Source: Aquificaceae bacterium
GTDB lineage: Bacteria > Aquificota > Aquificia > Aquificales > Aquificaceae
Direction of reading: 5' to 3'
DNA: 64,000 bases
Assembly (NCBI GenBank): GCA_037925075.1
Contig: JAXSNR010000001.1
Coordinates: 64,001-128,000 of the forward strand
Shown here: positions 1,342-19,616 of the stretch, piece after piece
Position numbering within the stretch: the first letter of the stretch is position 1
Layout: every line of letters starts with the position of its first letter
Made by a program: the position numbers and the translations under genes
Notes under the pieces: model-generated
What the model was told of the DNA's origin: nothing
Databases searched by the model: none
What the model saw: only the letters and a program-made list of their open reading frames with translations

Positions 1342-1387
1342 CTAAAACCTCCTGTCGCAGGGTACTTTTATCTCCATAACTTTGTAA

Positions 1388-1416
1388 AATATACTCATAC
1401 CTTTTGGGTCTGGCAA
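1388..1416 (-). promoter_or_regulatory. Putative sigma-70 promoter of rpoD
   Basis: Minus strand TTGCCA-17 nt-TATATT upstream of the rpoD RBS. Confidence 0.6.
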
Positions 1417-1445
1417 CTCAGATTGGGGTATAAGGTTATGGCAAC

Positions 1446-4400
1446 CTAAGACCTTTGGGCTTCTTCTATTATTTTTATTTCTTCCTTTGTTAGACCATAG
1501 AGCCTATAAACCAGCTCATCTATTTCCCTTTCCCACTCGGTGGTGTCCGCCTCTGGGTTTTGCTTTTTGGTGGTGATGATTTTATCCACTAAGGCGGATA
1601 TGTGGTCTGCTATGTGCTGGTTTTCGGGGGTGATGGGGGGTAGGGGAAGATTTATTAAAAACGCTTTTTTATATCTGTATCCTTCCTCTCCTAATCCACC
1701 ACCAGAATACCACTTTTTAAAAAAGTAAGCTACAGGCATGGAATTTAGCAATCCGCAAAGGTATTTAACATTCTTACCTGTCATTAAAAACGCCGTGGCT
1801 TCAACATAAAATTTTTCAGTATCATAATAAAATTGTGGTTTATGAACAATCTCCGAATACATCACCTTCTCCTTTTCAAACTCGTGGTAGTAAGCAATTT
1901 GGTCTTGCGTCTCAAACCATTTATTACCTGTCTTTTTTCGTGCATTGAAGCCAAGTTTTGGATATTTCTTTCCAGATTGTTCTAATTGGCGTATGTCAAA
2001 ATTGCTTAAAAAGTATTCTTTCAAAGCGGGGTAATCTTCAATGTCCAAATGCAAAGCTGGGAATGTCCCTATTATCCACAGCCCCGCCCACTCGTAATAA
2101 TACCTTTTAATATCCCTGCCCCTTAGGATTGGCTTGATAATAGCGGATGTGCGTTTTCTTTCTTCTTCATCCCTGCAATTCGCCAGTATTTCATTTCGCT
2201 TTTCTGTGGTGATTATAAAAGCTTCGTTCAAGCCTGTTAGTATGCCACGATAAATCTTCACATCCCACTCCTTTAAAGGCTTGCCCATTTGCTCTATCTT
2301 CTCTTTTAGCCTTTGCTCTGCGGTAGAACCTATAAACCATGGACCTTTATCCAGCTTTTCAAGGATTAAATACCAAGCTATTCTCGTTAGGTTTAGCATC
2401 ATTTCAGTAATTACCTTCTCTTTTGGTATTGAAAGCTCTCCTCTTATGTTTAGCCCTCTTTCAAGAACTATAGGTTCCTTAAGGGTCAAAGCCTTTAGGT
2501 TAAACTTGTCCGCCTTTGCCTTTTGGATTGTAAGGATGTTAGTATCCACCGTGCTACTTTCAAAAACACCGGGTCCTAAATCAATGAGTAAAACAGGGTT
2601 GTATTTGGTAAAGAATTCCCTTAGCTTTTCACCATAGCCTGCACGCATCCACTTGTTGGAAGTTATAAAGCAAAGGTATCCATTGGGTTTTAGTATCTTT
2701 ATGCCCTGCTCGTAGAAAAGCACATACACATCACCTCTTCTGTCAAAGGTTTCATATCCCTGATCCTTGTACCTCTTAGCAAGCTTGCCACCATCCTTTT
2801 GAAGTTGAACATACGGCGGATTTCCTATCACAATATCAAATCCATCCTCCACTCCAAACATCCACTCAGGGTCAAACCAGTCCGCTCTATCAAGCTGGTC
2901 AAAGATATCAAAGCGCACTATTTTTTCCACATCTTCACTTTTCCAACCAAGCTTGGTTAATATTTCCTTCATTTCCTCCCTTATCCTTCTGGCTTCCTTC
3001 TGGATTTTCTTTTTCTCTTCCCTTTCCCTTATGGAAAAGTGCTTTTTATAAAGCTCCTTTAACTTCTCCTTCAGCCCTGATAAAGCCTGATCTCCAAAAT
3101 TCAGTTGTTTGTTATTTTCAATCCCTATCAGAAAATCCGCACACACAAAGTTTGTCTCCAAGTGTGGAAGTGGCATTATGCCATAGTTTTCCGCCTGTGG
3201 GTCTATCTTCTGGTCTATAAGAAGAGATAGGAAAAACCTTAGCTTGCATATCTGCACCGCTATGTTTTGTATATCCACTCCATATATTGAGTTTTGTATT
3301 AGGTAAAGCTTTCTTGCGTAGTCTGGATATTTAGTTTTTTCGCTAAAGTTTTCGCTTAGCTCCTTTAACAGCTCTCTTCTTTCTTGTTCATCTTTTGTTC
3401 TATTAAAAATCTCCTCCACTTCTTTTAATGCCTTTCTCCTCTGAATGTATTTCCATTTTGTGTTGTCCTTGTCAATCCTACTTAAAAGATGTACAAGCTT
3501 GTGAAGAACGCCCATAGGAAAGGCACCGGAGCCTACCGCAGGGTCTAAGATTTTAAGCTGGTCAATAACGAATATAAGTGTGTCCTTTTCTTCTTCGGTA
3601 AGCTGGACTTCTTCCTCTGAATAGGATAGCAATTTTCTTAGTTTTTCCTCTTCTATTGTTGTGTGGGTTTTGAAGTATTGCACAAGGACTTCTTCAGCCA
3701 TAAAATCCACTACTTCCTTGGGAGTGTAGTAGGAGCCTGTTTGCTTTCTTGCGGTTGTCTTTGTCTCTTCATTATACACCGCAAGAAGATTTTCAAAGAT
3801 GTGTCCCAAAAGCTCTGGGTCAAGGGATACTTCCACATCCACAGGCGATGACTCGTCGGCGGTAAAGTTGTAGTCTTTTAGGATGTTTATAAGTCCTCTA
3901 ACTCTTTCAACCTTTTTCTCTCCATAAAAGTGGGATAGGTCTTCGTATCTTTCTGATGAGAAAAACAGATAGTCAGGGATTTTTGCCCTCTTGCTTTCGT
4001 TTCTTGAAAAACCATCCACATAATTTTTATCGTCATCAAGGCACTCAAACAAGCCACCGTTTATAAAGGGAACCTTTTCAAAAAGCCTTATGAACTCTTC
4101 CTTTGGGATTTTCAAAAACTTTTCGTATCTAAAAAGGCTCTTAACACCAAACTCCTTTATATTGGCTGGATAGCCCTTATCTTCCGCAAATTTCCTGTCC
4201 TTTATAGGTCTGTTTAGGGTTGCAAAAAACAGGTTTTGGAGAATTACATTGTAGTAATGGTCTTTTTCCCCAAAGTCTTTTACTATCTCCCTTAGGCTCA
4301 TTTCATCAAAAATTTCCTGTGGGACGAGCGACTTTTCCTTCAAAAACCATACAAAAATAAGCCTTGTTAAAAGCCTTATAAGGTTTTCTTCCTTAGTCCC

Positions 4401-4988
4401 TCCGGGAAAATACGCATTTTCCTTCAAAGCCCATGCGTACCAGTTTTGGATTTCCTTGTAAAACTCCTTTATGAGTGGCTTTACAGAAAAGGCTTGCTTT
4501 ATGCTCTCAAGGTCCTTTAGCTCAATCTCCATCAAAGCCTTTTTGAAAGTGCGGTAAGGCTTTCCCCTTTGCACATAGTAGGTATATCTCTTGTAATGGT
4601 TATACTTTTTCTTTGTGCCTTTATATTCCGCATAGACAAGTGAAAATCTAAAGTTTTTATTCTCATCATAAAACACAAAAAAGCCCGCATCAAAAAACTC
4701 AGAAGACAAAAGATATTTTGCTAATTGAAATTGCTTTACTTTGCTTGTCCTTTCTGTAAGCTCACCAGCATATTTTATGGTAAAAACACAAAAATCAGTA
4801 TCATCTTCTAACTTAACCTTACCAATAAGGGTTATCTCTCCAAACTCCTTAAACTTATCTTTATCTTCAAGCTCATATTTTTCATCAAAAAGCTCAAAGT
4901 TTTTGTTTTTTATACTTATAAAATCCCGTAAGGTTTCGGGTGAAAAGTTTTCAATTAGCTCATCAATCTTATTGTCCACCTCGCCCAT
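1446..4988 (-). CDS. Type IIG-like (Eco57I/TaqI-C family) N6-adenine DNA methyltransferase / restriction-modification protein
   Basis: 1180 aa; GSYYTP, motif I ILDPAVGSGAF, motif IV IGNPPY, C-terminal TaqI-like target recognition region ending EIDELVYRLYGLTKEEI. Confidence 0.9.
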   Translation of the reverse strand: MGEVDNKIDELIENFSPETLRDFISIKNKNFELFDEKYELEDKDKFKEFGEITLIGKVKLEDDTDFCVFTIKYAGELTERTSKVKQFQLAKYLLSSEFFDAGFFVFYDENKNFRFSLVYAEYKGTKKKYNHYKRYTYYVQRGKPYRTFKKALMEIELKDLESIKQAFSVKPLIKEFYKEIQNWYAWALKENAYFPGGTKEENLIRLLTRLIFVWFLKEKSLVPQEIFDEMSLREIVKDFGEKDHYYNVILQNLFFATLNRPIKDRKFAEDKGYPANIKEFGVKSLFRYEKFLKIPKEEFIRLFEKVPFINGGLFECLDDDKNYVDGFSRNESKRAKIPDYLFFSSERYEDLSHFYGEKKVERVRGLINILKDYNFTADESSPVDVEVSLDPELLGHIFENLLAVYNEETKTTARKQTGSYYTPKEVVDFMAEEVLVQYFKTHTTIEEEKLRKLLSYSEEEVQLTEEEKDTLIFVIDQLKILDPAVGSGAFPMGVLHKLVHLLSRIDKDNTKWKYIQRRKALKEVEEIFNRTKDEQERRELLKELSENFSEKTKYPDYARKLYLIQNSIYGVDIQNIAVQICKLRFFLSLLIDQKIDPQAENYGIMPLPHLETNFVCADFLIGIENNKQLNFGDQALSGLKEKLKELYKKHFSIREREEKKKIQKEARRIREEMKEILTKLGWKSEDVEKIVRFDIFDQLDRADWFDPEWMFGVEDGFDIVIGNPPYVQLQKDGGKLAKRYKDQGYETFDRRGDVYVLFYEQGIKILKPNGYLCFITSNKWMRAGYGEKLREFFTKYNPVLLIDLGPGVFESSTVDTNILTIQKAKADKFNLKALTLKEPIVLERGLNIRGELSIPKEKVITEMMLNLTRIAWYLILEKLDKGPWFIGSTAEQRLKEKIEQMGKPLKEWDVKIYRGILTGLNEAFIITTEKRNEILANCRDEEERKRTSAIIKPILRGRDIKRYYYEWAGLWIIGTFPALHLDIEDYPALKEYFLSNFDIRQLEQSGKKYPKLGFNARKKTGNKWFETQDQIAYYHEFEKEKVMYSEIVHKPQFYYDTEKFYVEATAFLMTGKNVKYLCGLLNSMPVAYFFKKWYSGGGLGEEGYRYKKAFLINLPLPPITPENQHIADHISALVDKIITTKKQNPEADTTEWEREIDELVYRLYGLTKEEIKIIEEAQRS

Positions 4989-4991
4989 CTT

Positions 4992-7900
4992 CTACTCCCT
5001 TCGGTTTTCTATTGCTATTATAACCTCTTCTTCAAGTTCCTTTTTTGATTTTACCTTTTCAAGAAAGTCATCCCCCAGCTTTTCCTTAAGGCTATTTATC
5101 TTTTCTTTCAAAGAGTTTATATTACCTTTTTTGTAATCTTCCTCCCAATCAACTATAACAGACAAAGCGTATTCTGATAGCGTGCCATAGTCTTTTATAT
5201 CCTCTATCAAAGCGGAAATAAAAGGTTCATATTCCTTTAGCCTTTCATCTTTCTTGAGACTTTTCAAAAGATTAAAAGCCCTCCTTTCTCTATCTTGCCC
5301 TGCCTTACCAATTTTCTTTGCTTTGTATTCTTTTCTATTAATATTCTCGTAGTCCTCCCAAGCCCTTTTGCTAAATTCAAGGGTTGGAGTATCCTTATCC
5401 GCCTTTATCTTCTCATATACATCTTCAAAGGAAACCACATAGGGCTTTTCGTCTTTATCGTAGTTTTTGTATAAAACAAACAAGTCTTTACCTCTTTTTA
5501 TAAACACGCATAGCTCCTCTTCCGTGCTGGGCTTTGCGGTCTTAACTCTGTTTGGTATGTCCTCTATTGCTTCTTCAATTTCCGGTGATTGCTCCTTAAT
5601 CCTTTCGTATTCTTTCCTTATCTTTGTAAAAAAGCTTTCCTCCTCTTCTGGCAAGGTGGTTAGCCTTCTGTAAAGCTCGGACGGCTGGGGCTTTTCATCG
5701 GGATGGAAGATTTTGGCATCCTCTCCCAGAACTTGATGTATCATAAACATCTTCTCTTGGGCTATCTCCCTTGACTTTACAATATCTGCCCCCTTTTCCG
5801 TGGGGAAGAAATGCACTATGTAGATTTTGTCATACACCTTTTTGCCTATCCTGTTAATCCTTCCCACTCTTTGAATAACTCTAACAGGGTTAAAGGGAAT
5901 GTCGTAGTTTATCACCACCCCAGCCCTGTTTAGGTTAAAGCCTTCTGAAAGCTTGTCTGTGGTCAAAAGAATTTGGTACTTGTCTTCTTGCTCCTTAGCT
6001 TGTGCATCAAAGTTTTTGTAAATGGCTTCTGAAACTTGTTTTGATAGGTTGCCATAGGCGGTAAGCAAAATATTCCCAAACCTTTCCCTTAATATACCTT
6101 CAAGATATTTTGCGGTATCCACATACTCCGTGAATATAACCACCTTTCTTTTTTCTCTTAGCCACTTTTCTATTTCCTCAATGAGCTTCTGAGCTTTTGG
6201 ATCGTTCTCATCAAGCCCATAAAATTCAAAACCTTGTATAAGCTCTTCAAAAAGCTCTTTGTCCTTTCTTAGGTCCTCCAAAAAGCCTTTGAGACTGCTA
6301 ATCTCATATACCTTGTGATATTTGCTGTCTTTTTTTAGCTCCTGTAGGGATTTTTTGTATTCATCCAAAAGCTCATTGACTCTGTCTTCGTCCTCCTCGC
6401 TTACTAACTCCTCCATCATATCCCTGTCAAGGATAAACTTTCCTGTTTTTTCCACAAACTCAAGGGCAAGCTCATGAACCTCTTTGAACCTCTTTATGCT
6501 CTCCTTAAAGGCACCAAAGCTACTTTCAAACCTTTTGACCAAAAGCCTCCTCATAAAGTGGTAAAGGCTTTGCTGGGATGTGTAGGTAAAGTCTTCTGTC
6601 TCTTCTTCTTTTCTATCTTCGTATCTGGCAGGGAAGTATAGGGCACCTCTGAAATCTCCCCCCTCATCATAGGGTAAAAAGGCGTCAATGACATCTTCGT
6701 AGAACTTAAGCTGATCTTTGGTAAGCTCAAAGAACACCTCTATTGGGTTTTCCACCTCTGGAAAATCTACCTTTTCTCCATAATACTTTAGGTCAAGGCG
6801 GTTTCTCCTTATGGTTACTGGCTCAATAATCTTCCTCATTCCGTCCGCTATCTTCTTTATTTCTCCTCTTACCTTTTTAAGCTCTTCCTCTCCTATTCCT
6901 CTCCTATCTTCCTTAAAAACTTCTTTGTAGTATTTTAGAACCTTTTCTCTTTTCTTCTCATCCTTTGAGTTTGCGTATCTTATGATGTAGGAAAGCTTGT
7001 TAAAGCTTCTTTGGTATTTTTCAAACACTTGGGAAAGGTCTTCATCATAAACAAGGCTGGACTTTTTAGGCACATCAAAAAGCTTCAAAAGGGCAAAAAT
7101 GTCCGATGGCTTGTTGTTAAAGGGCGTGGCGGTCAAAAGAATTACCTTTTTGCCCCTACATATCTCCCTAAGGTAGTGGTATCTTTGGGTAAGCTCGTTT
7201 CTAAACCTGTGGGCTTCATCCACGATTACCACTTCAAAATCCCCTCGTTCTTTCACCAGCTCCAAAGCAGTATCTAACTTGCCTATGGAAAAGACTTTCC
7301 AACCATAAAGCTCAAAGTCTTCTATATACTTCCGCCATCCATACTTTCCCATTTCGTCCCCCATAAGATGTGGCGGGCATATAACTATGCCTTTCTTACC
7401 AAGAAGATGGGCGGTAAGGCTCGCTATAACACTTTTGCCAAGCCCCACCACATCCGCTATTATGACGCCGTTGTGGTATTCACAATTCTGAACTGCCTGT
7501 GCCACCGCTTCTATCTGATAGGCATAGGGCTTGTAGCCAATTTCTTCCATAAAAGTCCTTATGTCCTTTTCAAGCTTGCCTTCTTGTAGCTGTATGTATG
7601 TCCTTAGCAAATACGCATAGGCTTGAAAAGGTGTAATGTCGCTAAAGATGGTTTGCCTTTTAATTACCTCTATTACATGTGATTTATCAATCTCAATGGC
7701 GTCCTTCCAACGCTCATCAAAATACTTCTCTACTTCCACAAATCCATAATCCTTTATCTCTACATTGAACTCCTCTTGGGACTCAAGCCCAAACTTTGTT
7801 AGATTGCTACTTCCTGTAATAAAAAAGCCTTCTCCACCAAGCAAATCTCTATAATCTTCCTTCACCTTAAAGATGTATAGCTTTGCATGGTTTGGCTTTT

Positions 7901-8270
7901 TTGTCTTTTTCAGGATTAGTTTATTCTCCTCTACAAGCTTTATGAAAAACTCAACTTGCTCGTACGCTTCCTTACTATCAAACTCCGCGGAAGTGAAAGC
8001 TGTCCGTAGGGAATGATAAAAGTCTTCCGCTCCCGCCTTAGGCACCTCATAAAGCCCATAGGCAGACCTATCCACTCCAAGCCCCACCAAAACCTTTATA
8101 TGCCCATCTTTAAGCTTTCCCTTCTCATACAGATTTTTTAGCTCCTCGTAAAGCCCCCCGACACCAGAAAAATAGAAATATCCCACTAAAATTTTGATCT
8201 CCTTGCTGTACCTTATAAGTTTCCTTAACCTTTCCCCTAAGGTCTTCTCTCCCGAATTGGTAATAAACAT
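4992..8270 (-). CDS. PLD-nuclease / SNF2-like SF2 helicase fusion
   Basis: 1092 aa; N-terminal HAKLY...GSSNLT...EFN PLD motif; ADVVGLGKS, DEAH, TATP, SEGFNL, QRVGRINRIG helicase motifs. Confidence 0.88.
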   Translation of the reverse strand: MFITNSGEKTLGERLRKLIRYSKEIKILVGYFYFSGVGGLYEELKNLYEKGKLKDGHIKVLVGLGVDRSAYGLYEVPKAGAEDFYHSLRTAFTSAEFDSKEAYEQVEFFIKLVEENKLILKKTKKPNHAKLYIFKVKEDYRDLLGGEGFFITGSSNLTKFGLESQEEFNVEIKDYGFVEVEKYFDERWKDAIEIDKSHVIEVIKRQTIFSDITPFQAYAYLLRTYIQLQEGKLEKDIRTFMEEIGYKPYAYQIEAVAQAVQNCEYHNGVIIADVVGLGKSVIASLTAHLLGKKGIVICPPHLMGDEMGKYGWRKYIEDFELYGWKVFSIGKLDTALELVKERGDFEVVIVDEAHRFRNELTQRYHYLREICRGKKVILLTATPFNNKPSDIFALLKLFDVPKKSSLVYDEDLSQVFEKYQRSFNKLSYIIRYANSKDEKKREKVLKYYKEVFKEDRRGIGEEELKKVRGEIKKIADGMRKIIEPVTIRRNRLDLKYYGEKVDFPEVENPIEVFFELTKDQLKFYEDVIDAFLPYDEGGDFRGALYFPARYEDRKEEETEDFTYTSQQSLYHFMRRLLVKRFESSFGAFKESIKRFKEVHELALEFVEKTGKFILDRDMMEELVSEEDEDRVNELLDEYKKSLQELKKDSKYHKVYEISSLKGFLEDLRKDKELFEELIQGFEFYGLDENDPKAQKLIEEIEKWLREKRKVVIFTEYVDTAKYLEGILRERFGNILLTAYGNLSKQVSEAIYKNFDAQAKEQEDKYQILLTTDKLSEGFNLNRAGVVINYDIPFNPVRVIQRVGRINRIGKKVYDKIYIVHFFPTEKGADIVKSREIAQEKMFMIHQVLGEDAKIFHPDEKPQPSELYRRLTTLPEEEESFFTKIRKEYERIKEQSPEIEEAIEDIPNRVKTAKPSTEEELCVFIKRGKDLFVLYKNYDKDEKPYVVSFEDVYEKIKADKDTPTLEFSKRAWEDYENINRKEYKAKKIGKAGQDRERRAFNLLKSLKKDERLKEYEPFISALIEDIKDYGTLSEYALSVIVDWEEDYKKGNINSLKEKINSLKEKLGDDFLEKVKSKKELEEEVIIAIENRRE

Positions 8271-8285
8271 GCCAATTATTTTACT
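8256..8285. repeat. 30-bp direct repeat H, copy 1 (helicase start codon and upstream)
   Basis: attggtaataaacatgccaattattttact, identical to 9455-9484. Confidence 0.95.
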
Positions 8286-8313
8286 ATCCTGAATATATCC
8301 TCTAAGCTTCTTC
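8283..8313. repeat. 31-bp direct repeat N, copy 1 (duplicate of nitroreductase 3' end)
   Basis: actatcctgaatatatcctctaagcttcttc, 30/31 identical to 11859-11889. Confidence 0.95.
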
Positions 8314-8436
8314 CCAACTATAACATTTTGACTTCTTTAAAGAAATTTTTTCCGAAAGTTGAAGTTGCATCAAAGAAAACAAAAAACACTCATTAAAAAG
8401 TAGAAGCGGAAAAATCTTCGCAAATTTTACTTAAAC

Positions 8437-9249
8437 TTATTCTTTTTCTATGTCAATTAACCTTCTTACAAGTTCATCTTCATCGTCAATCTCTACCAAT
8501 CGCTTTTTATAAAGCCTCATAAGTGAATCAATTGAAACCACTTTTACAACTATGTCGTCTGATATTCGAAATCTCCTTGTATTTTCGTCTCTCTTAATTA
8601 TCCAAACATGTTTTGTATAATTTTTTATGCCCCATTCACTATCTTGTTCAAACCTGTAAGAATCACCCCTTAAACTATTTATATAGTTCTCTATCTGCTT
8701 TTCCTTTTCCTTCAGATCGCCAAGCGTAGCATCATAAATCACTACTAAATTTCCAATTCTAAAAATGCCATCAGCATGTCCCCTTTGCTTATAAAATTTT
8801 CTTATATTGTTAATCCCTAATAGTTTTAATACTACATGTACATCGTGTTCAAATTGTTCCCAATCATTTTCTGTTTTCAGGCTTTTAAAAAATGGAGGTA
8901 AGTAAGGATCTTCTTGAGGTACCTCTTCGTCTAATTCGTGTATATACCATCCACTCTTAGTTAACTTTAATAGTGGAATGCCCGGTGGGGGCGAATCTAA
9001 TTTAGCCTTAAGGTTAACATTAAAATATATTTTGTCACCAATAATTCTTACGTCAGAAATACGACCTTCGTATATATGCTCAATCTGGCGATTATCATTA
9101 ATCTTCACAAATAGCGTATCAAGTTGTTCACAGTCTTCTATGTTCACTTGTGGTGCAAGTGGCTTAGTGTAAAATGTTTTTGTGACATTATCCCAGTGAT
9201 AACGCCAAGTTGTCACCATGATGTTAATCTTCCTACCCATGTGTAACAT
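8437..9249 (-). CDS. Hypothetical protein with C-terminal Mrr-like PD-(D/E)XK endonuclease fold
   Basis: ORF track 8437..9372; start more likely ATG 9249 or 9240; WEQFEHDVHVVLKLLG...ADG...VIYDAT...QIENY resembles Mrr-type catalytic domains; AT-rich. Confidence 0.55.
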   Translation of the reverse strand: MLHMGRKINIMVTTWRYHWDNVTKTFYTKPLAPQVNIEDCEQLDTLFVKINDNRQIEHIYEGRISDVRIIGDKIYFNVNLKAKLDSPPPGIPLLKLTKSGWYIHELDEEVPQEDPYLPPFFKSLKTENDWEQFEHDVHVVLKLLGINNIRKFYKQRGHADGIFRIGNLVVIYDATLGDLKEKEKQIENYINSLRGDSYRFEQDSEWGIKNYTKHVWIIKRDENTRRFRISDDIVVKVVSIDSLMRLYKKRLVEIDDEDELVRRLIDIEKE

Positions 9250-9454
9250 CCTTTTACTTTTATGCCCCTTGCTTATATTATAGTTCAAAACAAGCTGATT
9301 GCCAATATAGTGGTGAAATTCCAAGAGAGTTCTCAAAACTAAGACTATTTTCCTTGTTTTTTCACAAGCCAAAGCCCTCGGCTACTTTCCACTTTAAGTT
9401 TCTTAAATCCCATATCCCTCCAATACCTCTCCACACCTCGGGGCTTTTTGCCAG

Positions 9455-9484
9455 ATTGGTAATAAACATGCCAATTATTTTACT
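9455..9484. repeat. 30-bp direct repeat H, copy 2 (orphan copy of helicase 5' end)
   Basis: Identical to 8256-8285; on the minus strand reads TAAAATaattggc-ATG TTT ATT ACC AAT (MFITN). Confidence 0.95.
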
Positions 9485-9671
9485 TCCTTGACAAGATTTT
9501 CAGTGCTATTTCTTTAACTTTCCCCCTTGTCGCCAAATCCCATGTAAATAGGAACTCTGCATAATGCAACGGTTGCGGACATACAAAATACAAGGCATAA
9601 TCAAGCCTTTAAATTAGTAAACGCAACCCCCAACCAAGCAGGTGCGTACTCTTATTCGAACTTTTTATAGC

Positions 9672-11579
9672 TCATATGAACAACTTTTCATATATTTTTC
9701 TTAAAAAATTAGCAGTCTCTTCATCTTCACAGAATATATATGTACCCTTAATGCCCCTTGTTAAAAATATTCTATAACGGTTTATCAAAAGTTTATAAGC
9801 CCTTTCTTCTGCTTTTTTATCTCCATTTTTTCCAGCATTTATTAACTGTTTCAAACTGCGTTTGCCTATGTTATCTTCACAGTTATCTCCAATTTGCCAT
9901 TTACCATCTCTTATAACAAAATCACGACCCCATATAATACCCGCGTAATCTGTCTCAAACCCCTGGCACCCATATATCGAGGCACACTTTTCTAATTTAT
10001 TTGATTCACCCTTTACCCAGAATGGAACATAATCTTTTTTAGGGTCCATGAGCCAGTAAATATTCTTACCTAACCCCTTATAAATGTCCAATCCAGAAGG
10101 TAATGGATATCCGATACGAAGATTTTTCTCTGATTTTGGATGATCGTTATCCCCAGGCGATTCGGTAAAGGAGGCAATTAAAGCAACTTTAAATCCCTGG
10201 TTCTTTTTATCCTCCAGTAATGAAAATAACTCATCTATATGAGAACACACTTTAAAATCATAATTATCTTTCCATGAATTTATATTGTCTTTTGAAAGAT
10301 TATTTGGATTTTCTAGAAGGTTTTCTACAAACTTATGGTATTGTTCTCCTCCCTGTGTTCTATAAAAACCTTTTAAAAATTTCATTTCTATTGTCTTACT
10401 TTGTCTTTTTGCTTCATTAACAAAATTTTCAGTAGTACCCTCCTCTTCCTCGTTCAGTATCTGGCCCTCATCATAAAAGAAAACAGCTACCCTCCCTCTT
10501 TGCATTGCATAATGAATATTTTCCCTTGTCATCCTTTGAGCTTCATCATATATTACAATATCAAACTTACCACCTTCGAAGTTCTTTTCAGCAATACCTT
10601 TATAATTTCCTTTCGGGCCAACTGAATAAAATTTAATAGGGTCACTAAGGCCATGTCCAATTGAGTCAAAAATACTTTTTATTGAATTTATTAACCTATT
10701 ATTACGGTAAGCCAATATTGTTTCATAGTTATTACTAAAACTATTTAGTAAAAGATGAATTGCAACAAGAGTTTTCCCAGAACCAGGTGCACCTTGAACA
10801 AGGTATACTATGTCTTTTGCATTATTTTTAACATCCATCATTATTTCGTTTATAAGCTCTAATTGCTCCAAAGATAGTCCCCATCCATTTTCTGCTAATG
10901 TCAGATAACTTTGTTTTTGTATTTCTTCAAAATGTTGCTTTATAGCATCAAATAGCTTTTTTGACTGCTTATACTGGCCTTTAATAAATCTTTCTATGGT
11001 TTCATGATCAAGAGTTGATCTGAGATGCGAGCTTATGAAGTCTTTTAATTTTTCTTTGTCGTTTTTGTAAAAAACTTGTATATCATTAAACTTTATTTCT
11101 ACGTCGTTTTCATTAGCGTTGTACATCAGAACTGCTGGTATTATATTGAAATTTTCAGATTCTGAATGAGAAAATATAATCTTCCCAACATAATTTTTTA
11201 CTTGATACTCTGGGTGTGTTGTTATCCCAATATCGCTTTCAATGAGATATTCATGAGAGCATCCATTTGCTTTTTTCCATCCTTTTAGTTCAAAAACAAT
11301 AATGGTAGGTTTGTCGTTCTTATCTTTTCCAAATATAATCAGGTCAATTCTTTCATCACTAAATGGTAATCTGTATTCAAAAACCACAGTTAGGTTGTGT
11401 AGCTCATTATAATTAAGAGCCTCCTTTAAAAAATCTATTGATGATTTCCATGCGTTTATCTGTTCAATATCTGGCTGATCACCATATATAATTCTAAAAC
11501 TATTTTTAAAGGCGTATAACAGTATGTTTGAGTCTTTGACTATAAAATCCCTTATAAGACCGGTAAATATATTGTTCAT
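9672..11579 (-). CDS. DUF2075-family nuclease/SF1-like helicase (Schlafen group 3-like helicase domain)
   Basis: 635 aa; FEY...RIDL...FELKGW nuclease motif, Walker A GAPGSGKT, DEAQR, SIYGCQGFETDYAG, LTRGIKG; GGAGG RBS; AT-rich. Confidence 0.85.
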   Translation of the reverse strand: MNNIFTGLIRDFIVKDSNILLYAFKNSFRIIYGDQPDIEQINAWKSSIDFLKEALNYNELHNLTVVFEYRLPFSDERIDLIIFGKDKNDKPTIIVFELKGWKKANGCSHEYLIESDIGITTHPEYQVKNYVGKIIFSHSESENFNIIPAVLMYNANENDVEIKFNDIQVFYKNDKEKLKDFISSHLRSTLDHETIERFIKGQYKQSKKLFDAIKQHFEEIQKQSYLTLAENGWGLSLEQLELINEIMMDVKNNAKDIVYLVQGAPGSGKTLVAIHLLLNSFSNNYETILAYRNNRLINSIKSIFDSIGHGLSDPIKFYSVGPKGNYKGIAEKNFEGGKFDIVIYDEAQRMTRENIHYAMQRGRVAVFFYDEGQILNEEEEGTTENFVNEAKRQSKTIEMKFLKGFYRTQGGEQYHKFVENLLENPNNLSKDNINSWKDNYDFKVCSHIDELFSLLEDKKNQGFKVALIASFTESPGDNDHPKSEKNLRIGYPLPSGLDIYKGLGKNIYWLMDPKKDYVPFWVKGESNKLEKCASIYGCQGFETDYAGIIWGRDFVIRDGKWQIGDNCEDNIGKRSLKQLINAGKNGDKKAEERAYKLLINRYRIFLTRGIKGTYIFCEDEETANFLRKIYEKLFI

Positions 11580-11580
11580 T

Positions 11581-11661
11581 TTATACCTCCCTTAAGTTTT
11601 TCATTACCATAATCTGTACTTTGTTGTAAACCTTAAATTTAGTTTCCCAGCGGAATCTCAT
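11581..11661 (-). pseudogene. Type I R-M specificity subunit (hsdS) N-terminal relic
   Basis: GGAGG RBS then MRFRWETKFK..., resembling the KFRWETEFKETEIG N-termini of thermophile HsdS; ends after 26 aa just before the DUF2075 ATG. Confidence 0.5.
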
Positions 11662-11702
11662 AACTCCTCCCGTTTAATCTTTAGAACATTATATCTTCAA
11701 TC

Positions 11703-11852
11703 CTAATGATTTTTGTCTTCAAAGGGAATGCCCCCTTCTTCGGGTTTAATGCCAACATGCGTGCTAAGTTCAAGAGCCACATATTTATACTCATGAGCTT
11801 CAACCTTCCCTCTTAATTTATCCACCGCTTTCCAAAGTTCATCCTCAAAAGA
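11703..11852 (-). pseudogene. Internally deleted Type I R-M methyltransferase (hsdM) relic
   Basis: SFEDELWKAVDKLRGKVEAHEYKYVAL (HsdM N-terminal LWKAADKLRG..EYK motif) fused to HVGIKPEEGGIPFEDK (HsdM C-terminal YVG..EDDGEPFEEK motif); no start codon. Confidence 0.7.
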
Positions 11853-11854
11853 CT

Positions 11855-12370
11855 TCAGACTATCCTGAATATATCCCCTAAGCTTCTTCTTGGTGTAGGT
11901 AGTGGCTCTTCCGCTGGGTATCCTACGGTAAGTATGGCTACGGGTTTTAACTCTTTTGGTGCGGACAGGCTAGACTTTAGACCTGCTTCTTCAAAGGCTC
12001 CTATCCAGCATGTGCCAAGTCCAAGGGCTACCGCCGCAAGCTGGGCATAGGCACAGGCTATGGTGGCATCTTGCACACAGTAAAGTTCTGCTCCCCTTTT
12101 GCCATACTTTATTGCACTCCTTGATGGGTTCGCAAAGAAGACAAAAACCACGGGAGCCTGTGCTATAAACCATTGGCTCAGAGCCCACCGGGCAACTTCC
12201 GCCTTTTTTGCTTCATCAAGGATTACCATCACCTCATAAGCCTGAAGATTTCCCGCAGATGGCGCACTCCTTATGGCTTCCATTATCTTTATGAGCTTTT
12301 CTTCTTCAACGGGCTTTTTCTGATAGCTTCTTATAGAATGTCTGTTTTTTAGCACTTCAAAGAACTCCAT
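11855..12370 (-). CDS. Nitroreductase family protein
   Basis: RHSIRSY, APSAGNLQ, GLGTCWIGAF, TVGYP motifs. Confidence 0.92.
   Translation of the reverse strand: MEFFEVLKNRHSIRSYQKKPVEEEKLIKIMEAIRSAPSAGNLQAYEVMVILDEAKKAEVARWALSQWFIAQAPVVFVFFANPSRSAIKYGKRGAELYCVQDATIACAYAQLAAVALGLGTCWIGAFEEAGLKSSLSAPKELKPVAILTVGYPAEEPLPTPRRSLGDIFRIV
11859..11889. repeat. 31-bp direct repeat N, copy 2 (native nitroreductase 3' end)
   Basis: actatcctgaatatatcccctaagcttcttc, 30/31 identical to 8283-8313. Confidence 0.95.
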
Positions 12371-12992
12371 CTTTTAAAAGCTCCTCCACCTCTGAGTCTT
12401 CCACCTGTCTAAAATCTTTGTAAAACATGCCCACTGCAAAGCTACCGCTCTCGGAGGTGTGAAGACAATAAACTTCGTCCGCATGCTCTTGCAGTCTTTT
12501 CATGCTTTCCACAGGACACACGGGTACGGCGACCAAAACCCTTTTTGCACCCTTTCTTTTTAGGTACTCCACTCCGGCGATTACCGTCTGCCCTGTGGCT
12601 ATACCATCATCCACCACAAGAACCACCTTATCCTTTGCCTCCAACTCTTTACCCTTTAAAAACTTTTCTTCTCTTTCCCTTATCTTTTTCAGCTCCTCCT
12701 TTGCAACCTTTTCTATGTCCTCTTGGGAAAGTCCAAAGTAATCCACAGTCCATCTGTCTGTGTAGATCCTTCCACCAGGGTCTATGGCTCCAAAGGCAAG
12801 CTCAGGGTTTGAGGGAACGCCCAACTTTCTCACTATAAGAAGGCTTAGGGGCACGCCAAGAGTTTCTGAAACCTCCTTTGCCACCACCACGCCACCCCTT
12901 GGTACTCCAAGCACAAGGTCCACATCTTTTACCTTCTCCTTCAAAAACTCTCCTAAAAGTTTTCCCGCTTCTTCCCTGTTTTTAAAGACCAT
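12357..12992 (-). CDS. Type I phosphoribosyltransferase family protein
   Basis: FKNREEAG, GVPRGG, VVDDGIATGQT; start reassigned to ATG 12992 (MVFKNR), which avoids overlap with the divergent gene. Confidence 0.88.
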   Translation of the reverse strand: MVFKNREEAGKLLGEFLKEKVKDVDLVLGVPRGGVVVAKEVSETLGVPLSLLIVRKLGVPSNPELAFGAIDPGGRIYTDRWTVDYFGLSQEDIEKVAKEELKKIREREEKFLKGKELEAKDKVVLVVDDGIATGQTVIAGVEYLKRKGAKRVLVAVPVCPVESMKRLQEHADEVYCLHTSESGSFAVGMFYKDFRQVEDSEVEELLKDGVL

Positions 12993-12995
12993 GTC

Positions 12996-13005
12996 TATAA
13001 TTTTA
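12996..13005. promoter_or_regulatory. Bidirectional -10 element TATAATTTTA
   Basis: Reads TATAAT on + (9 nt before ATG 13011) and TAAAAT on - (7 nt before ATG 12992); no SD on either side. Confidence 0.6.
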
Positions 13006-13010
13006 AAGTC

Positions 13011-13298
13011 ATGGGCAAGCATAGAAAAAATAAGGTGAAGTTAGAGCACCATCTTTTGGAAGGGCTTAGTGAATATCTGGAAGAGCTTTCTCGCATGGAA
13101 TCCGTTAGCTCCATAATACCGGGTAGGATAATAAGGCAGAACGGGGGTAGAGGCTCACGGGGGCTTTTTCTAAAATACAGGACAAGCTCTGGCTATAAGC
13201 TCTTGTACAAGATTGGCACATCTGTGCAAGAGGTTTTTGTGGTATGCAAGGACCCACAAGCCTTTGAAAAAGCCTTTGCGGAGAAAATAAAGCTATGA
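13011..13298 (+). CDS. DUF2103-like small protein
   Basis: KLEHHLLEGL...IIPGRI...GYKLL...VQEVFVV pattern. Confidence 0.65.
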   Translation: MGKHRKNKVKLEHHLLEGLSEYLEELSRMESVSSIIPGRIIRQNGGRGSRGLFLKYRTSSGYKLLYKIGTSVQEVFVVCKDPQAFEKAFAEKIKL

Positions 13299-13786
13299 GG
13301 CTTTTAATTGTATTCCTGTCTTTTGTAAGCCTTTTGATGGCTCAAGAGGTGAAGGTTTCTGCCATAGTTCAGGGCAGGGTGGAAAAGGTGTTTGTAAAGG
13401 AAGGTCAGAGGGTAGAGAAGGGAGAGGTGCTTGTGCAAATAGACCCTGTGCTTTACACAACTCAGAAAAGGAGCCTACAAGCTCAGCTAAATCTTCAAAG
13501 GGTTGTATTGGAGAAGGTGGAGAGGGATTTTAGGAGGTATGAAGAGCTCTTCAACAGGGGGCTTCTTTCAAGGAGCGAATACGAGGACTGGAAAAGTAAG
13601 TATGAAAAGGAGCTTGCACAGCATGAATCTCTAAAGGCTCAACTTGATAGGATAGAAAAGCTTATAGAGTACTGCACCATAAGGTCGCCTGTAAGGGGTG
13701 TTATAAAAAGGCTCTTTGTCAGGGAAGGTCTTTTTGTAAATGGGACTACAAGCCCTGAAGTTTTACTACTTATTGAAGAAAGATAG
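13295..13786 (+). CDS. Short periplasmic adaptor-like protein (lipoyl-like halves plus alpha-hairpin)
   Basis: Signal peptide; VQGRVEKVFVKEGQRVEKGEVL...IRSPVRGVI; only 163 aa. Confidence 0.7.
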   Translation: MRLLIVFLSFVSLLMAQEVKVSAIVQGRVEKVFVKEGQRVEKGEVLVQIDPVLYTTQKRSLQAQLNLQRVVLEKVERDFRRYEELFNRGLLSRSEYEDWKSKYEKELAQHESLKAQLDRIEKLIEYCTIRSPVRGVIKRLFVREGLFVNGTTSPEVLLLIEER

Positions 13787-14442
13787 CTACCTTACCACTT
13801 CCCACTCGGTTATAAGATGGGCACCCCTCTTGAAGTGAGACCTAAGCCTTAGGTGAAGAAGGTTTTTTAGGCTTTTAAAGCCCTCTCCACCTACAAGTGT
13901 AGGCACATTCTCACCACCCACTATTACAGGTAGATGTATAAGCCTTATCTCGTCCACAAAACCCCTTCTGATGAATTCCCAGTTTATGGAGGCTCCACCT
14001 TCCACCATAAGGCTTTTTATTCCCTTTTCATACAGAAGAGGCATAAGCCTTTCAAAATCCACAAGGTCCTCACCCACCACCAACACCTCAGCACCCAAAG
14101 CCCTTATTTTTTGAATCTTTTCCTCTGGAGCTCTATTTGTGGTGACTATGATGGTGTGTGCGTCCTTTGAAAAGATGTTGGCATCCAGTGGTACGTTGGC
14201 GGTGGAACAGGGTATTATGCGTGTGGGGTTTTTGCCCTTTACATACCTGACTGTGAGGCTTGGGTTGTCCGTTCTGACCGTCTCACAACCCACCATTATG
14301 CCATCCACCTTTGCCCTTACTTCATGAAGATACCTGTAAGCCTCTTGGTCCATAAGGGTCATAAGCTCCTTGCTGGAAGCACCTCTATATAGGGTCAGCT
14401 TTCCATCCACGCTTACTTCGGAGACGATTATCACATAGGGCC

Positions 14443-14446
<4 letters not shown>
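13787..14446 (-). CDS. RibD C-terminal type pyrimidine reductase (Rib7/ArfC-like, no deaminase domain)
   Basis: RPYVI...SVDGK, VGCETVRTDNPSLTVR, LMVEGG, DEIRL. Confidence 0.85.
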
Positions 14447-16082
<1,636 letters not shown>

Positions 16083-16097
16083 TTAAGCAATTATACA

Positions 16098-16556
16098 CTA
16101 CTTTTCAAATCTGAAAAACACAGAAAGGTAGTCTTTTCCTATTTTGTACCTGCTTATGAGAAGCTTTTCTCTAAACTGCTTAGGTATCTTTTCATAGGTG
16201 TCCGTGAGCACCACAGCTAGCATTACATCTATGCCAAGGTATTCGCCTTCTTTACTAAAGCCCTCCAACTTCAAAAGCTGTTCAATACCATCCTTTGATA
16301 GGATTTTAAAGAAAGCCCATTGCTTGGAAGTTTCCCTATCCTTTCTAACCGTACCATCCACATCCGAAAGTCTTATCTCCTGATCCTTGCTTAGGAAAAG
16401 TACCTTTTTCTTTGTAAGAAGCCTAAGGATGCCATCCTTTATGTCAAAGTTCATGCCGGGGTATGCCTTTTTAAGTTCCTCTGGAGTTAACCTTATCTCT
16501 AACTCCGCATCTATAAGATTGCCGAAGTTTAAAAGGTCTTCAATAAATAAGCCCAT
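16098..16556 (-). CDS. Hypothetical protein
   Basis: 152-aa ORF filling the gap between same-strand genes; no motif recognised. Confidence 0.65.
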   Translation of the reverse strand: MGLFIEDLLNFGNLIDAELEIRLTPEELKKAYPGMNFDIKDGILRLLTKKKVLFLSKDQEIRLSDVDGTVRKDRETSKQWAFFKILSKDGIEQLLKLEGFSKEGEYLGIDVMLAVVLTDTYEKIPKQFREKLLISRYKIGKDYLSVFFRFEK

Positions 16557-16611
16557 AGGTATAAAAATATACCAGCACTTAAGGATTGCGAAAAGAAGGT
16601 TAGCTTTTAAG

Positions 16612-17952
16612 CTATAAGTTTTTCCTTATTTCTCTCCTGTAAGCCCAGTAGAAAATAAGAGCCCGCAGTGTGGTTTCAAAGCTCATAAAGACCCAAGGTA
16701 CCACTGGGTGTGGAAAGAGTTTTAATGTAAGCATGGAAGGTAATATCCTGAAAATCCAAAAGGAGGAGAGATTAACCAAAAGAGGTATATGGGTCTTACC
16801 CATGCCTTTTAGAGAACCAGAAAAGATGCTCGCGTAGGCCATCTGAGGCTGAGAGAGGGCAACTATAACAAGATAATAAACCGCATACTCTATCACTTCC
16901 TTGTCCCTTGTAAAGATGAGAGAAAAGTACTGTGGGAAAAGGGCTATAAAAAGCCCTATAGAGCCCATTATAATTGCGGTGGTGTGGGCACTTGCTCTAA
17001 CACCGTGGTCAAGCCCTTTGAAGTTCTTGGCACCCCAGTTTTGACCTGCCAGTGTAGTTGATGCAATCATCATACCAAAACCTATCATAAAGGAAACACT
17101 TTCTACTCTGAGACCCACTTGATGTGCCGCAAGGACCTTATCTCCAAACTGGGCCACAAGACCCACAAAGATGTTAAAGGAGAGGCTAGTAAAAGCCCTT
17201 TCTATGGCGGTGGGTGTGCCTATTCTAAGCATCTGAAAAAGCACAGCTCTTTTAAAGTTCAGTTTTAAGGGAAAGGGCTTTTTGTACCTTATGTACAGGT
17301 ATATGTAGAAAAGAAGACCCGCAAGCTCCGAAAGGGCTATACCCCAACCCGCACCTGCCACCTCAAGCCTTGGAAAACCAAATTTTCCGTATATGAGAAG
17401 GTACGCGGAGCCTATGTTTATCACATTCATAAGAAGGGCGGCCTTGAAAGGTGTTTTTGTGTCTCCATAGCCGTTGTATCCCGCATAAAGGGCGTTGGTT
17501 ATAAAGCCTACGGTTATAAACATAAAAACAGGCTTTAAGTATTCCCTTGCAAGGCTTGCGACCGTATGGGAAGCTCCAAAGGTGAGCATGAGATGTGCAA
17601 CAAGCTCCTCACCCCAGAAGGTTAGGGGTAAGGCTATCGCAAGGGAAAGAACCATACCCCAAAGAAGAGCTGGTGATGGGTCTTTGCCTGCTCCTACCCT
17701 TTGAGCCACAAGGACAGAGGTGCCCGTGTAGGCAAGAGCCATAAGGGAGTATATGAACCAAAGCATGCTGGTGGAATATCCTACCGAAGCAACCGCAGAA
17801 GCGGAAAGCCCAGAGACCAAAATTATAGAAAAGGCACTCTCTACAGTGTATAGCAGGTTTGACAGAATTATGGGGAGGGCAAGCCTTAGAACTCTACGGG
17901 CAACCTTTAACTTCCCTTCCGAGGGGTCTATAAGGATTCTGTTATCGGGCAT
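16612..17952 (-). CDS. MATE family efflux transporter
   Basis: About 12 TM segments; LALPIILSNL, GDTKTP, GQNWGAKN, GMGKT. Confidence 0.92.
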   Translation of the reverse strand: MPDNRILIDPSEGKLKVARRVLRLALPIILSNLLYTVESAFSIILVSGLSASAVASVGYSTSMLWFIYSLMALAYTGTSVLVAQRVGAGKDPSPALLWGMVLSLAIALPLTFWGEELVAHLMLTFGASHTVASLAREYLKPVFMFITVGFITNALYAGYNGYGDTKTPFKAALLMNVINIGSAYLLIYGKFGFPRLEVAGAGWGIALSELAGLLFYIYLYIRYKKPFPLKLNFKRAVLFQMLRIGTPTAIERAFTSLSFNIFVGLVAQFGDKVLAAHQVGLRVESVSFMIGFGMMIASTTLAGQNWGAKNFKGLDHGVRASAHTTAIIMGSIGLFIALFPQYFSLIFTRDKEVIEYAVYYLVIVALSQPQMAYASIFSGSLKGMGKTHIPLLVNLSSFWIFRILPSMLTLKLFPHPVVPWVFMSFETTLRALIFYWAYRREIRKNL

Positions 17953-18688
17953 AGGCTTTCATTACCTGAAGAGTCTTTTCATAGCCAAGCCTGTATATTT
18001 CATCCGCCTTAAGGAGGCTCAAAGGAGAATAAGAATACAGGTCTGGCTCTATCAAAACATGGCACAGCTCTTTTCTTTTCTCCGTGTTAGACCTAACAGC
18101 CAAAAGAAAGCTTCTCACAAGTATCTGAAATATATTCCCAACCCTTTCAAGTGGTGTGTTTGGGTTTACGTCAACGCCCACAAGCATACCTTCCATACCT
18201 AAGAGGGGCTCAACGGGTAGGTTGTTGGTTATACCACCATCCATAAGGATGTAGCTTTTATACCTTACAGGCTCAAATATGCCCGGTAGGGCACAGCTAC
18301 CCAAAAGAAGGGGAAAAAGGCTACCACTGTCAAAATAGTGAGTCTTACCACTTTTTATATCCACCGCACCTATAAAAAGCCTTTTGCTTAAGTCCTCTAT
18401 CCTCTCCACAGAAAGCATGCTTCTTAGATACTTTTCCGCATGTTTTAGAGATATAAGCCCAAGCCTTGGCACTGTGGGTCTAAGGTATTTTAGCCACTCC
18501 CTTGACTTTACCACTTTAAGCATCTCTTCCGGAGTGTAGCCATCGCAGTAAAAGGCACCTACCAAAGCCCCCGCACTTACACCGCTTATGGCCCCTATTT
18601 CAAAGCCAAGCTCTTCAAGGGCTTTTATAACTCCTACGTGTGCAATACCGCGAGAGGCTCCACCAGAAAGTGCAAGATTAACCTTCAT
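17942..18688 (-). CDS. Patatin-like phospholipase
   Basis: LSGGASRG, GVSAG, DGG motifs. Confidence 0.92.
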   Translation of the reverse strand: MKVNLALSGGASRGIAHVGVIKALEELGFEIGAISGVSAGALVGAFYCDGYTPEEMLKVVKSREWLKYLRPTVPRLGLISLKHAEKYLRSMLSVERIEDLSKRLFIGAVDIKSGKTHYFDSGSLFPLLLGSCALPGIFEPVRYKSYILMDGGITNNLPVEPLLGMEGMLVGVDVNPNTPLERVGNIFQILVRSFLLAVRSNTEKRKELCHVLIEPDLYSYSPLSLLKADEIYRLGYEKTLQVMKAYAR

Positions 18689-19576: not shown

Positions 19577-19616
19577 GTAGTTTATTATACAAGTACAAAG
19601 GTGTTAAAATCTTAGT

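Follow-up and report, generated by a model that had tools for sequence, protein, structure and literature searches.

A block of about 10 kb, carrying likely anti-virus genes, lies behind the housekeeping gene nitroreductase in the genome of a hot-spring member of the Aquificaceae. It contains extra copies of adjoining gene ends, which are most likely the scars of a known, mechanistically open, integrase-less gain of restriction genes rather than a new cassette-loading site. The locus is a further case of a described type of insertion, not a new cassette system. The features on which this reading is based, numbered within the analysed window of 64,000 nucleotides, are compiled in Table 1.

Table 1. 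Features of the nitroreductase–rpoD island and its flanks (window coordinates).
Feature	Position	Strand	Evidence
Putative native rpoD promoter, right island flank	1388..1416	-	-35 TTGCCA, 17 bp, -10 TATATT
TCTGA, right copy of 5-bp island-bounding repeat	1418..1422	-	In front of rpoD promoter
Whole island, 10.4 kb	1423..11854	-	Nitroreductase stop to rpoD promoter; absent in 15/20 relative loci running directly into rpoD
Type IIG-like restriction-modification fusion, 1180 aa	1446..4988	-	PADLOC REase_MTase_IIG E 1.7e-181; Pfam Eco57I, TaqI_C
PLD + SNF2 helicase, 1092 aa	4992..8270	-	Pfam PLDc_2, SNF2-rel, Helicase_C
Repeat H copy 1, helicase 5' end: TAAAAT box, 9-nt leader, first 5 codons	8256..8285	-	Similar leader in G017/G015
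Repeat N, spare copy of nitroreductase 3' end, ancestral Glu codon retained	8283..8313	-	Glu in 19/20 relative loci
Cassette 2 gene, 267 aa, predicted PUA-like (1-105) + FokI-like PD-(D/E)XK nuclease (109-267)	8437..9240	-	Predicted fold
σ70-like promoter of cassette 2 gene	9277..9305	-	11/12, consensus match only
Open stretch after H copy 2, stop at end, possible gene relic	9348..9454	-	No homologue found
Repeat H copy 2, cassette 1/cassette 2 border	9455..9484	-	Sequence match to copy 1
Schlafen group 3 helicase-domain protein, 635 aa	9672..11579	-	PF09848 E 7.8e-69
hsdS relic, first 10 codons	11632..11661	-	8/10 aa identical to hsdS start in G056/L073
Collapsed hsdM: N-terminal 31 aa fused to C-terminal piece, ~1.3 kb lost	11706..11858	-	HsdM_N E 4.9e-4
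TCTGA, left copy, contains native nitroreductase stop	11855..11859	-	Comparison with relatives
Nitroreductase, 171 aa, intact, left flank	11855..12370	-	PF00881; same length in relatives
Repeat N in real nitroreductase gene	11859..11889	-	Glu to Gly change versus relatives

The limits of the island were defined by comparison with relatives, for which 25 genus-level nitroreductase rows yielded 20 orthologous loci from 19 genomes; 5 of the 24 genus genomes gave no nitroreductase orthologue match. The nitroreductase stop lies right after codon 171 in 18 of the 20 loci and one codon later in 2, and rpoD follows directly in 15. The preliminary description had proposed that the inserted DNA supplies the stop of the real gene, which was not confirmed: the stop is located at the relatives' position, and the same TCTGA recurs at the far end of the island. 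An overlap of at least 5 bp is expected in 0.7% of random junctions. On the right, the rpoD promoter DNA, putatively assigned from its consensus, matches the sequence directly after the nitroreductase stop in relatives (e.g., G003, locus L007). Neither terminal inverted repeats nor TG...CA ends were found at the island ends (1423 and 11854), and positions 1-20000 of the window contain no tRNA target. Both cassettes within the island are GC-poor (34% and 33%, versus 44.5%).

The type I relics and the DUF2075 gene previously assigned to cassette 1 were borne out, the former by homologue alignments and the latter by the match of the 635-aa protein to its Pfam family. The collapsed hsdM exhibits 72% identity to homologues in three genomes (G045, G056 and G115), its C-terminal piece aligns about 1.3 kb further on in loci L072 and L073, and the nitroreductase end aligns in frame with hsdM 5' ends (L077). 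The N-terminal part of the 635-aa protein matches PADLOC PDC-S41 (E 3.3e-37). Cassette 1 begins inside the collapsed hsdM and has no defined end, and collapse by deletion is visible within the cassette itself. No homologue was found for a relic peptide at 9483-9608, and no gene could be assigned to the sequence upstream of H copy 2, so that the succession of cassette 1 and H is a presumed donor context. Homologues of the helicase occur in 11 other neighbourhoods among relatives, a comparison that left out two partial matches (G011 and G014), and in most relatives the module lies 10-60 bp from host genes; 0 of 16 relative helicase loci carried the helicase start in duplicate. Assignment to DISARM was rejected, as the helicase reached 170 bits for DrmD against a cut-off of 610 and the island has no further genes to form a drmABC core. 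A 20-bp repeat around the helicase locus of G017/G015 and an 18-bp repeat in G050 lie inside ORFs and were dropped as chance.

Repeats N and H, joined between the helicase and cassette 2, form a 58-bp junction (N|H) in which they overlap by 3 bp (8283-8285), and this junction occurs again as separate halves of 31 and 30 bp. These coordinates and matches were confirmed, with 30/30 identical positions between the H copies and 30/31 between the N copies, as was the minus-strand reading RSLEDIFRIVK-stop, ttggc, ATG, MFITN. The genome search that had been recommended for additional copies, carried out as a whole-assembly mismatch scan, found none closer than 8-9 mismatches, and H had 0 matches in viral contigs. 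A helicase-like continuation after H copy 2 (9/14 nt with one gap, p 0.01-0.07, in a window picked post hoc) was considered too weak to retain.

According to the preliminary description, N|H was the ancestral empty junction of a possible defence hotspot. The comparison of the relatives' nitroreductase-to-rpoD junctions that it had called for does not agree: the K-stop nitroreductase end was found at 0 of 20 loci, a helicase at that place likewise at 0 of 20, and no locus carries a defence gene behind nitroreductase. A hotspot extending across the genus is also at odds with the many other neighbourhoods of the helicase module. The N|H-helicase allele was detected neither in the 20 loci of other species nor in four sequencing runs, and the AGT core has so far not been found to border any second cassette. 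A search of the literature on Aquificaceae islands, integrase-independent hotspots and duplication remodelling returned nothing on the present locus.

Since the block as a whole is bounded by TCTGA holding the native stop, the N|H junction, complete as it seems, probably arose as a deletion joint, and cassette 1 probably predates cassette 2; the order of events in the preliminary description is probably wrong. We favour, with moderate confidence, a stepwise origin. Foreign DNA containing a type I R-M operon, the Schlafen-like gene, the helicase and the IIG enzyme would have been joined at the stop through TCTGA microhomology, after which the type I genes would have collapsed through deletions; the boundaries of this step are observed, whereas the event itself and the two later steps we infer. 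Cassette 2 would then have arrived at the helicase start, accompanied by an additional copy of the junction region. A deletion at an imperfect microhomology would have removed cassette 1 from this copy, either later in the same chromosome or earlier in a sister strain; in the latter case, the DNA of that strain would have been taken up and joined by homology on one side and illegitimately on the other. Such a course would leave remnants of 30-31 bp on either side without damage to nitroreductase, the rpoD promoter or the helicase start, and the likely gain would be that a modification-dependent nuclease is placed in front of the R-M pair already present. At 7 of 10 positions, the end of cassette 1 that lies upstream of H copy 2 agrees with the N end, as would be expected if microhomology had made N|H from the order N, cassette 1, H; of 4000 island positions drawn at random, 0.9% reached the anchored score under an ad hoc scoring scheme. 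The previously claimed entry of cassette 2 with a duplication of about 58 bp is retained insofar as the cassette is bracketed by a copy of the host-gene end/R-M start junction, and abandoned insofar as it took N|H for a prior empty junction. This order relies on short-overlap statistics with tests chosen post hoc.

The main competing explanation, which we regard as rather unlikely, places the helicase first: the helicase-IIG module would have been inserted cleanly in the last nitroreductase codon, making N|H the primary joint, cassette 2 would have followed with an exact 58-bp duplication, and an allele bearing cassette 1 would have been merged later by recombination anchored in nitroreductase and in the 30-bp H. 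Taken with the right flank, N|H is compatible with an insertion having a 1-bp overlap, the module is mobile and lies close to host genes in most relatives, 58 bp is near the 46-bp duplications given by Furuta, Abe and Kobayashi (2010; PMC2853133), and the single N mismatch fits two alleles. However, this explanation requires that an identical 30-bp H reached one site twice, independently, or else a deletion anyway, and the similarity found upstream of H copy 2 speaks for a joint derived from cassette 1 and H. The dedicated loading site of the preliminary description, with a 3-bp core at which cassette 1 was inserted last, seems quite improbable. Although one 3-bp stretch marks the end of both the N and the H half, an overlap of at least 3 bp is expected in 6% of random junctions, which leaves the core unremarkable, and late entry of cassette 1 would have restored the native CTGA ending by chance in only about 0.2% of cases in island composition. 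Moreover, while an independent insertion struck the nitroreductase stop in G006 and a repeat element lies there in G005, the G006 duplicate has other limits than N|H and non-coding cargo, cassette 1 starts within a gene relic, and the 20 relative loci hold no defence cassette behind nitroreductase.

Insertion by an enzyme acting in trans, such as the single Xer or a Tn7-like transposase, is very improbable. The target repeat of Tn7 is 5 bp long, equalling that of the island, and one rve transposase is present elsewhere in the genome, inside the block of about 12 kb that splits dprA; however, the island ends lack the inverted or TG...CA termini of a Tn7-like or IS transposon, which led us to reject this class. 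The resemblance of H to dif reaches 16/22 at a 7-bp spacer, at which 37 genome sites reach 16, but only 13/22 at the canonical 6-bp spacer (11-6-11), where 932 genome sites reach at least 14, and H can be accounted for by a -10 box and the codons MFITN; a Xer/dif module was accordingly set aside. The recommended search of the genome (assembly 99.95% complete) did reveal one tyrosine recombinase (PF00589), located beside a dif-like site on contig C2, and neither a serine recombinase (PF00239) nor IS110 (PF01548). Integron cassette arrays, Xer/pdif and IMEX modules gain small accessory genes serially at one locus. The island shares this serial gain, but it lacks an integron integrase, attC- or dif-like sites and a dedicated recombinase, and its cassette ends lie inside gene relics; a site-specific system was therefore discarded. 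Misassembly or a strain chimera has an almost negligible probability: the assembly is probably metagenomic and the repeats are near assembly word size, but a single contig of run X1, possibly the assembly source, covers 3200-13200 with 0 differences across all inner junctions, and contigs of four further runs from two studies bridge single junctions (X2, X3 and X4 from the same study; X5 from a second, across 11859-11889). Among the joints listed for contigs of X1, X4, X5 and X7, which drop rare variants, none falls inside 8256-11889, and no intermediate allele was seen in them, with one genome representing the species.

Comparable scars elsewhere in the genus support the earlier claim of repeated insertion events. 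In the same genome, a second R-M locus contains a 322-bp duplicate at 82% (G000:C2:85097-85418 versus 86303-86609) that spans a host-gene end, a TATAAT and a methyltransferase gene start, and brackets a GATase-like gene; the layout is the same, here complete, and G024 has neither insert at this site. In G006, an insert of 262 bp comes with a perfect duplicate of 25 bp across the same nitroreductase stop as that of the island; G015 is empty. In G012 and G008, the host gene upstream of a 31%-GC gene recurs behind it as a copy consisting of a 47-50 bp piece joined to the 98-111 bp 3' end, which would provide a precedent for long duplication followed by internal deletion. A 33-bp repeat (G000:C1:647429/653812) was rejected, as it flanks a block lying elsewhere in relatives and the empty site was not found. 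The locus and its sister sites look like several stages within one genus: the perfect 25-bp duplicate would be fresh, those of G012/G008 and N|H collapsed, and the 322-bp duplicate at 82% aged. These apparent stages suggest duplication followed by trimming.

Insertion with long target duplication is said to have been reported by Nobusato et al. in 2000. The phenomenon, which the preliminary description had taken as possibly undescribed, is documented for R-M genes in PMC2853133, whose class comprises inserts below 20 kb without a mobility gene and duplicates above 30 bp that are unique in the genome; its discussion leaves the mechanism open, and lone type IV nuclease (mcrA) inserts and R-M genes as targets are also reported there. 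Duplicates across the genus sites measure 25, 38, 58, about 145 and 322 bp, varying as in that report; the recurring type of scar matches this kind of insertion. Those here and at the second locus (58 and 322 bp) are unique, cassette 2 is a 1.14-kb, one-gene insert without a mobility gene, in line with the integrase-less character first noted, and the G006/G015 pair provides an empty site. Also shared are the duplicate over a stop or start codon, the intact host gene and the low-GC cargo. In contrast to that class as described there, 2.4 kb interrupt the copy on the upstream side or else the downstream one has collapsed, the outer island repeat of 5 bp is far below 30 bp, and the cargo of cassette 2 belongs to an unassigned nuclease family. 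Against the R and M genes of this class, with a lone mcrA also on record, cassette 2 carries a predicted nuclease alone. The sister-site junctions constitute testable material for the still-open mechanism. A dedicated recombinase-free route in this group, repeatedly loading defence genes at particular host-gene 3' ends ahead of R-M promoters, with long duplication and trimming to about 30 bp locking the new gene in, is doubtful; two gene ends were each struck separately in two lineages, and an unassigned family of PUA-FokI-like nucleases is among the cargoes. Homology-facilitated illegitimate recombination in natural transformation was reportedly described by de Vries and Wackernagel in 2002. 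As far as PMC6382021 presents it, its one-sided anchor and microhomology join would give a spare host-gene end ahead of incoming R-M genes; ComEC is present in this genome, but the split dprA argues against present-day transformation.

The designation of the cassette 2 product as Mrr-like proved too narrow. The protein has no Pfam family match and is also missed by NCBIfam and PADLOC; Mrr_cat (PF04471) gave 0 matches for it and matched 1 of 88 family members (E 0.011). A first fold from 2 sequences (pLDDT 57) was superseded by a later prediction. The predicted nuclease domain resembles FokI (Z 13.7, rmsd 2.6, 146 aligned) and BspD6I (Z 12.5), with invariant G154, D157, G158 and D170, and residues 1-105 consistently match YTH, THYN1, VcaM4I, ASCH and PH1033 chains at Z 5.5-6.7, below the Z 8 under which the tool advises caution. 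The nuclease family comprises 212 clusters, and a PDB sequence search with its alignment returned nothing significant. The protein was not found in 120 other genomes of the order, and scans of genome contigs were also empty; the cassette DNA gave only short matches in the 24 genus genomes, to nitroreductase and the Schlafen-like gene, and none in plasmids. The relic peptide at 9348-9455 may be a GNAT C-terminus. The predicted combination of an EVE/YTH/ASCH-like N-terminus with a PD-(D/E)XK C-terminus would match that of the PUA-containing modification-dependent endonucleases of Lutz et al. (2019; PMC6765204), although here the nuclease domain is closest to FokI/BspD6I and lacks Pfam or PDB sequence matches. 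Furthermore, the cassette 2 gene adjoins a methyltransferase, unlike most PUA nucleases, for which the abstract of that study describes such a neighbour as rare. The protein is predicted to be a heat-stable candidate modification-dependent restriction enzyme.

The repeat layout is real and was correctly spotted in the preliminary description, which had also partly misread it. Both repeats, H at the helicase 5' end and N at the nitroreductase 3' end, were found where they had been placed (table), and a search of the 1.6-Mb assembly detected no further copy of either, the next best site lying 8–9 mismatches away. The GC content of the two inserts is 34% and 33%, against 44.5%. The metagenomic runs containing the window DNA were from hot springs. 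A single contig of run X1, possibly the source of the assembly, covers positions 3200–13200 with 0 differences; X2 contigs bridge the joined N-H copy and the separate H and N copies, X3 and X4 contigs bridge one junction each, and the nitroreductase end is also bridged by an X5 contig belonging to a separate study. Given this coverage, misassembly as the origin of the layout is hardly credible. No joint inside the region was among those listed for the run contigs, which lose rare variants.

All 20 nitroreductase orthologue loci, from 19 of the 24 genus genomes, were compared. The stop directly follows codon 171 in 18 of them and comes one codon later in two; none ends in Lys, which argues against the Lys-ending N-H copy being the ancestral empty junction. 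rpoD follows immediately in 15 loci, other neighbours in two and a contig edge in three, and the helicase, methyltransferase, Schlafen-like gene and nuclease are absent from all 20. In the window, the sequence that relatives have downstream of the stop occupies position 1417 and lower coordinates, with TCTGA in front of it, and the real nitroreductase ends in the same TCTGA. Thus, the stop is native, at the relatives' position, rather than supplied by inserted DNA, and the island comprises everything between the two motifs, including the restriction-modification pair previously regarded as resident, which the 20 loci lack. The 3-bp core proved ordinary, since such an overlap is expected in 6% of random junctions (0.7% for 5 bp). 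In the spare N, the Glu codon seen in 19 of the 20 relatives is retained; the real gene now encodes Gly there.

Repeat H corresponds to the 5' end of the helicase gene itself, with a TAAAAT box and a short leader ahead of five codons, and the helicase leader is nearly identical in two relatives (G015 and G017). Among 16 relative helicase loci, 11 different neighbourhoods were found, none containing the nitroreductase, and no duplicate of the helicase start occurs in any of the 16; a methyltransferase lies behind the helicase in 11, and four of the other five stop at a contig edge. Starts of this module (L034–L049) usually carry a -10-like box 7–15 nt before the ATG and lack a clear ribosome-binding site, pointing to near-leaderless expression, workable beside many host genes. 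A second, distant (35%) island of this type is present in the same genome, G000. In the 10 bp upstream of the second H copy, 7 positions match the end of N, a score equalled at 0.9% of 4000 random island positions under our own scoring, picked post hoc; a microhomology joint of N to cassette 1-H would leave such a match.

We consider it fairly probable that the island was joined at the nitroreductase stop by microhomology, and that cassette 2 arrived last, bringing a copy of the junction region. This copy would have lost cassette 1 either once it was in place or at an earlier time, in a sister allele, the latter route involving joining by one-sided homology; the two sub-routes are inseparable from sequence alone. 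Joining of this one-sided kind resembles homology-facilitated illegitimate recombination (HFIR), as cited in PMC6382021. A clearly smaller chance is given to an initial arrival of the helicase with a later merging of alleles. The order first proposed, with cassette 1 entering the N-H copy last at the core, appears improbable, since the native CTGA would have to be restored by chance (0.2%). Insertion by an enzyme acting in trans seems more doubtful still, as inverted ends are absent from the island and the resemblance of H to a dif site does not exceed chance. The recombinase search proposed in the preliminary description revealed a single tyrosine recombinase, located next to a dif-like palindrome, one rve transposase on contig C2, and neither resolvase nor IS110 in the assembly (99.95% complete); window positions 1–20000 contain no tRNA. 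ComEC is present, and some 12 kb, including the rve transposase, separate the two parts of a split dprA.

Duplicates of gene ends recur across stops or starts, the shortest being 25 bp long and the longest 322 bp. In G006, a 262-bp non-coding insert is accompanied by a perfect duplicate of 25 bp that spans the nitroreductase stop, at a site that is empty in G015; the insert carries palindromic, REP-like elements also found in locus L047. At a second site in G000 (L087), a 322-bp duplicate (82%) spans a host-gene 3' end, a TATAAT and the first part of the gene for an adenine methyltransferase of 875 aa. Its copies enclose a GATase-like gene ahead of a restriction-modification pair (29–33% GC), which we take, from gene sizes and N-termini, to be type III. 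The layout is that of N-H-cassette-N-H with both copies whole, and G024 lacks either insert at this position. At the same host gene, G012 and G008, counted as one event because they are close kin, carry a different gene of 31% GC and then a collapsed host-gene copy, in which a 47–50 bp piece is joined to a 98–111 bp 3' end. This relic is a direct precedent for a collapsed copy. On the host gene's other side lie three further low-GC genes, of 839, about 900 and 194 aa. In G045, a type I hsd operon lies within a 38-bp duplicate (89%), flanked on both sides by a 31-bp repeat that resembles CRISPR repeats, and was possibly inserted into a one-spacer array. In G000, a two-component/sulfur-related block of 6.3 kb, which sits elsewhere in relatives, is bounded by a 33-bp direct repeat (31/33).

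Coordinates of the features discussed (window positions unless a contig, C, or locus, L, is named)
Feature	Location	Remark
H copies	8256-8285; 9455-9484	identical
N copies	8283-8313; 11859-11889	one mismatch
Joined N-H copy	8256-8313	
TCTGA	1418-1422; 11855-11859	
Island	1423-11854	
Cassette 2	8314-9454	minus strand
Cassette 1	9485-11858	minus strand
Second GTTGCCA after IIG stop	1423-1446	25 bp before native one
10-bp inverted match to DNA behind rpoD -10 box	1423-1446	
Second PLD-helicase + methyltransferase island	G000:C1:269483-278500	
Split dprA	G000:C2:335-13198	
Insert and 25-bp duplicate	L013:1458-1769	G006
322-bp duplicate	C2:85097-85418; 86303-86609	G000
Low-GC 300-aa gene + internally deleted host-gene copy	L092:7061-8598; L093:1711-3264	G012; G008
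hsd operon	L072:4767-11592	G045
33-bp direct repeat	G000:C1:647429-653844	L088
Cassette 2 nuclease homologue	L059:7938-8807	

The locus is a further case of a known class, insertion with long target duplication, defined by Furuta et al. 2010 (PMC2853133). In that paper, the repeats span starts and stops, restriction-modification genes serve as targets, there is a lone mcrA case, competent species are favoured and the mechanism is left open. The present locus works alike, its strict membership falling short by an empty allele. Our literature search found no description of this locus, whose value lies in a useful set of stages and a nuclease outside assigned families.

Cassette 1 is not tidily built. 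Its first part enters hsdM a few codons after the start (72% identity to G045, G056 and G115), skips about 1.3 kb to the C-terminus and retains ten hsdS codons; the remainder encodes an intact protein of 635 aa whose helicase domain is of Schlafen group 3. Cassette 2 is one 267-aa gene with its own promoter (11/12 consensus match), whose product has no match in Pfam, NCBIfam or PADLOC; clustering at the 50% level gives it 212 relatives. The protein is predicted to have the PUA + PD-(D/E)XK architecture that, in PMC6765204, typifies modification-dependent enzymes. In a model built from 88 sequences (pLDDT 93.9), residues 109–267 match the FokI cleavage domain (Z 13.7, rmsd 2.6, 146 aligned), and residues 1–105 match YTH, THYN1, VcaM4I, ASCH and PH1033 chains at Z 5.5–6.7 only; Foldseek aligned the model with BspD6I (E 1.3e-4). 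A homologue of this nuclease lies on an archaeal-looking contig (L059). It is flanked on either side by what we take, from their motifs, to be queC-like and queE-like genes, with a GTP cyclohydrolase-like gene adjoining, and a link to 7-deazaguanine chemistry is possible.
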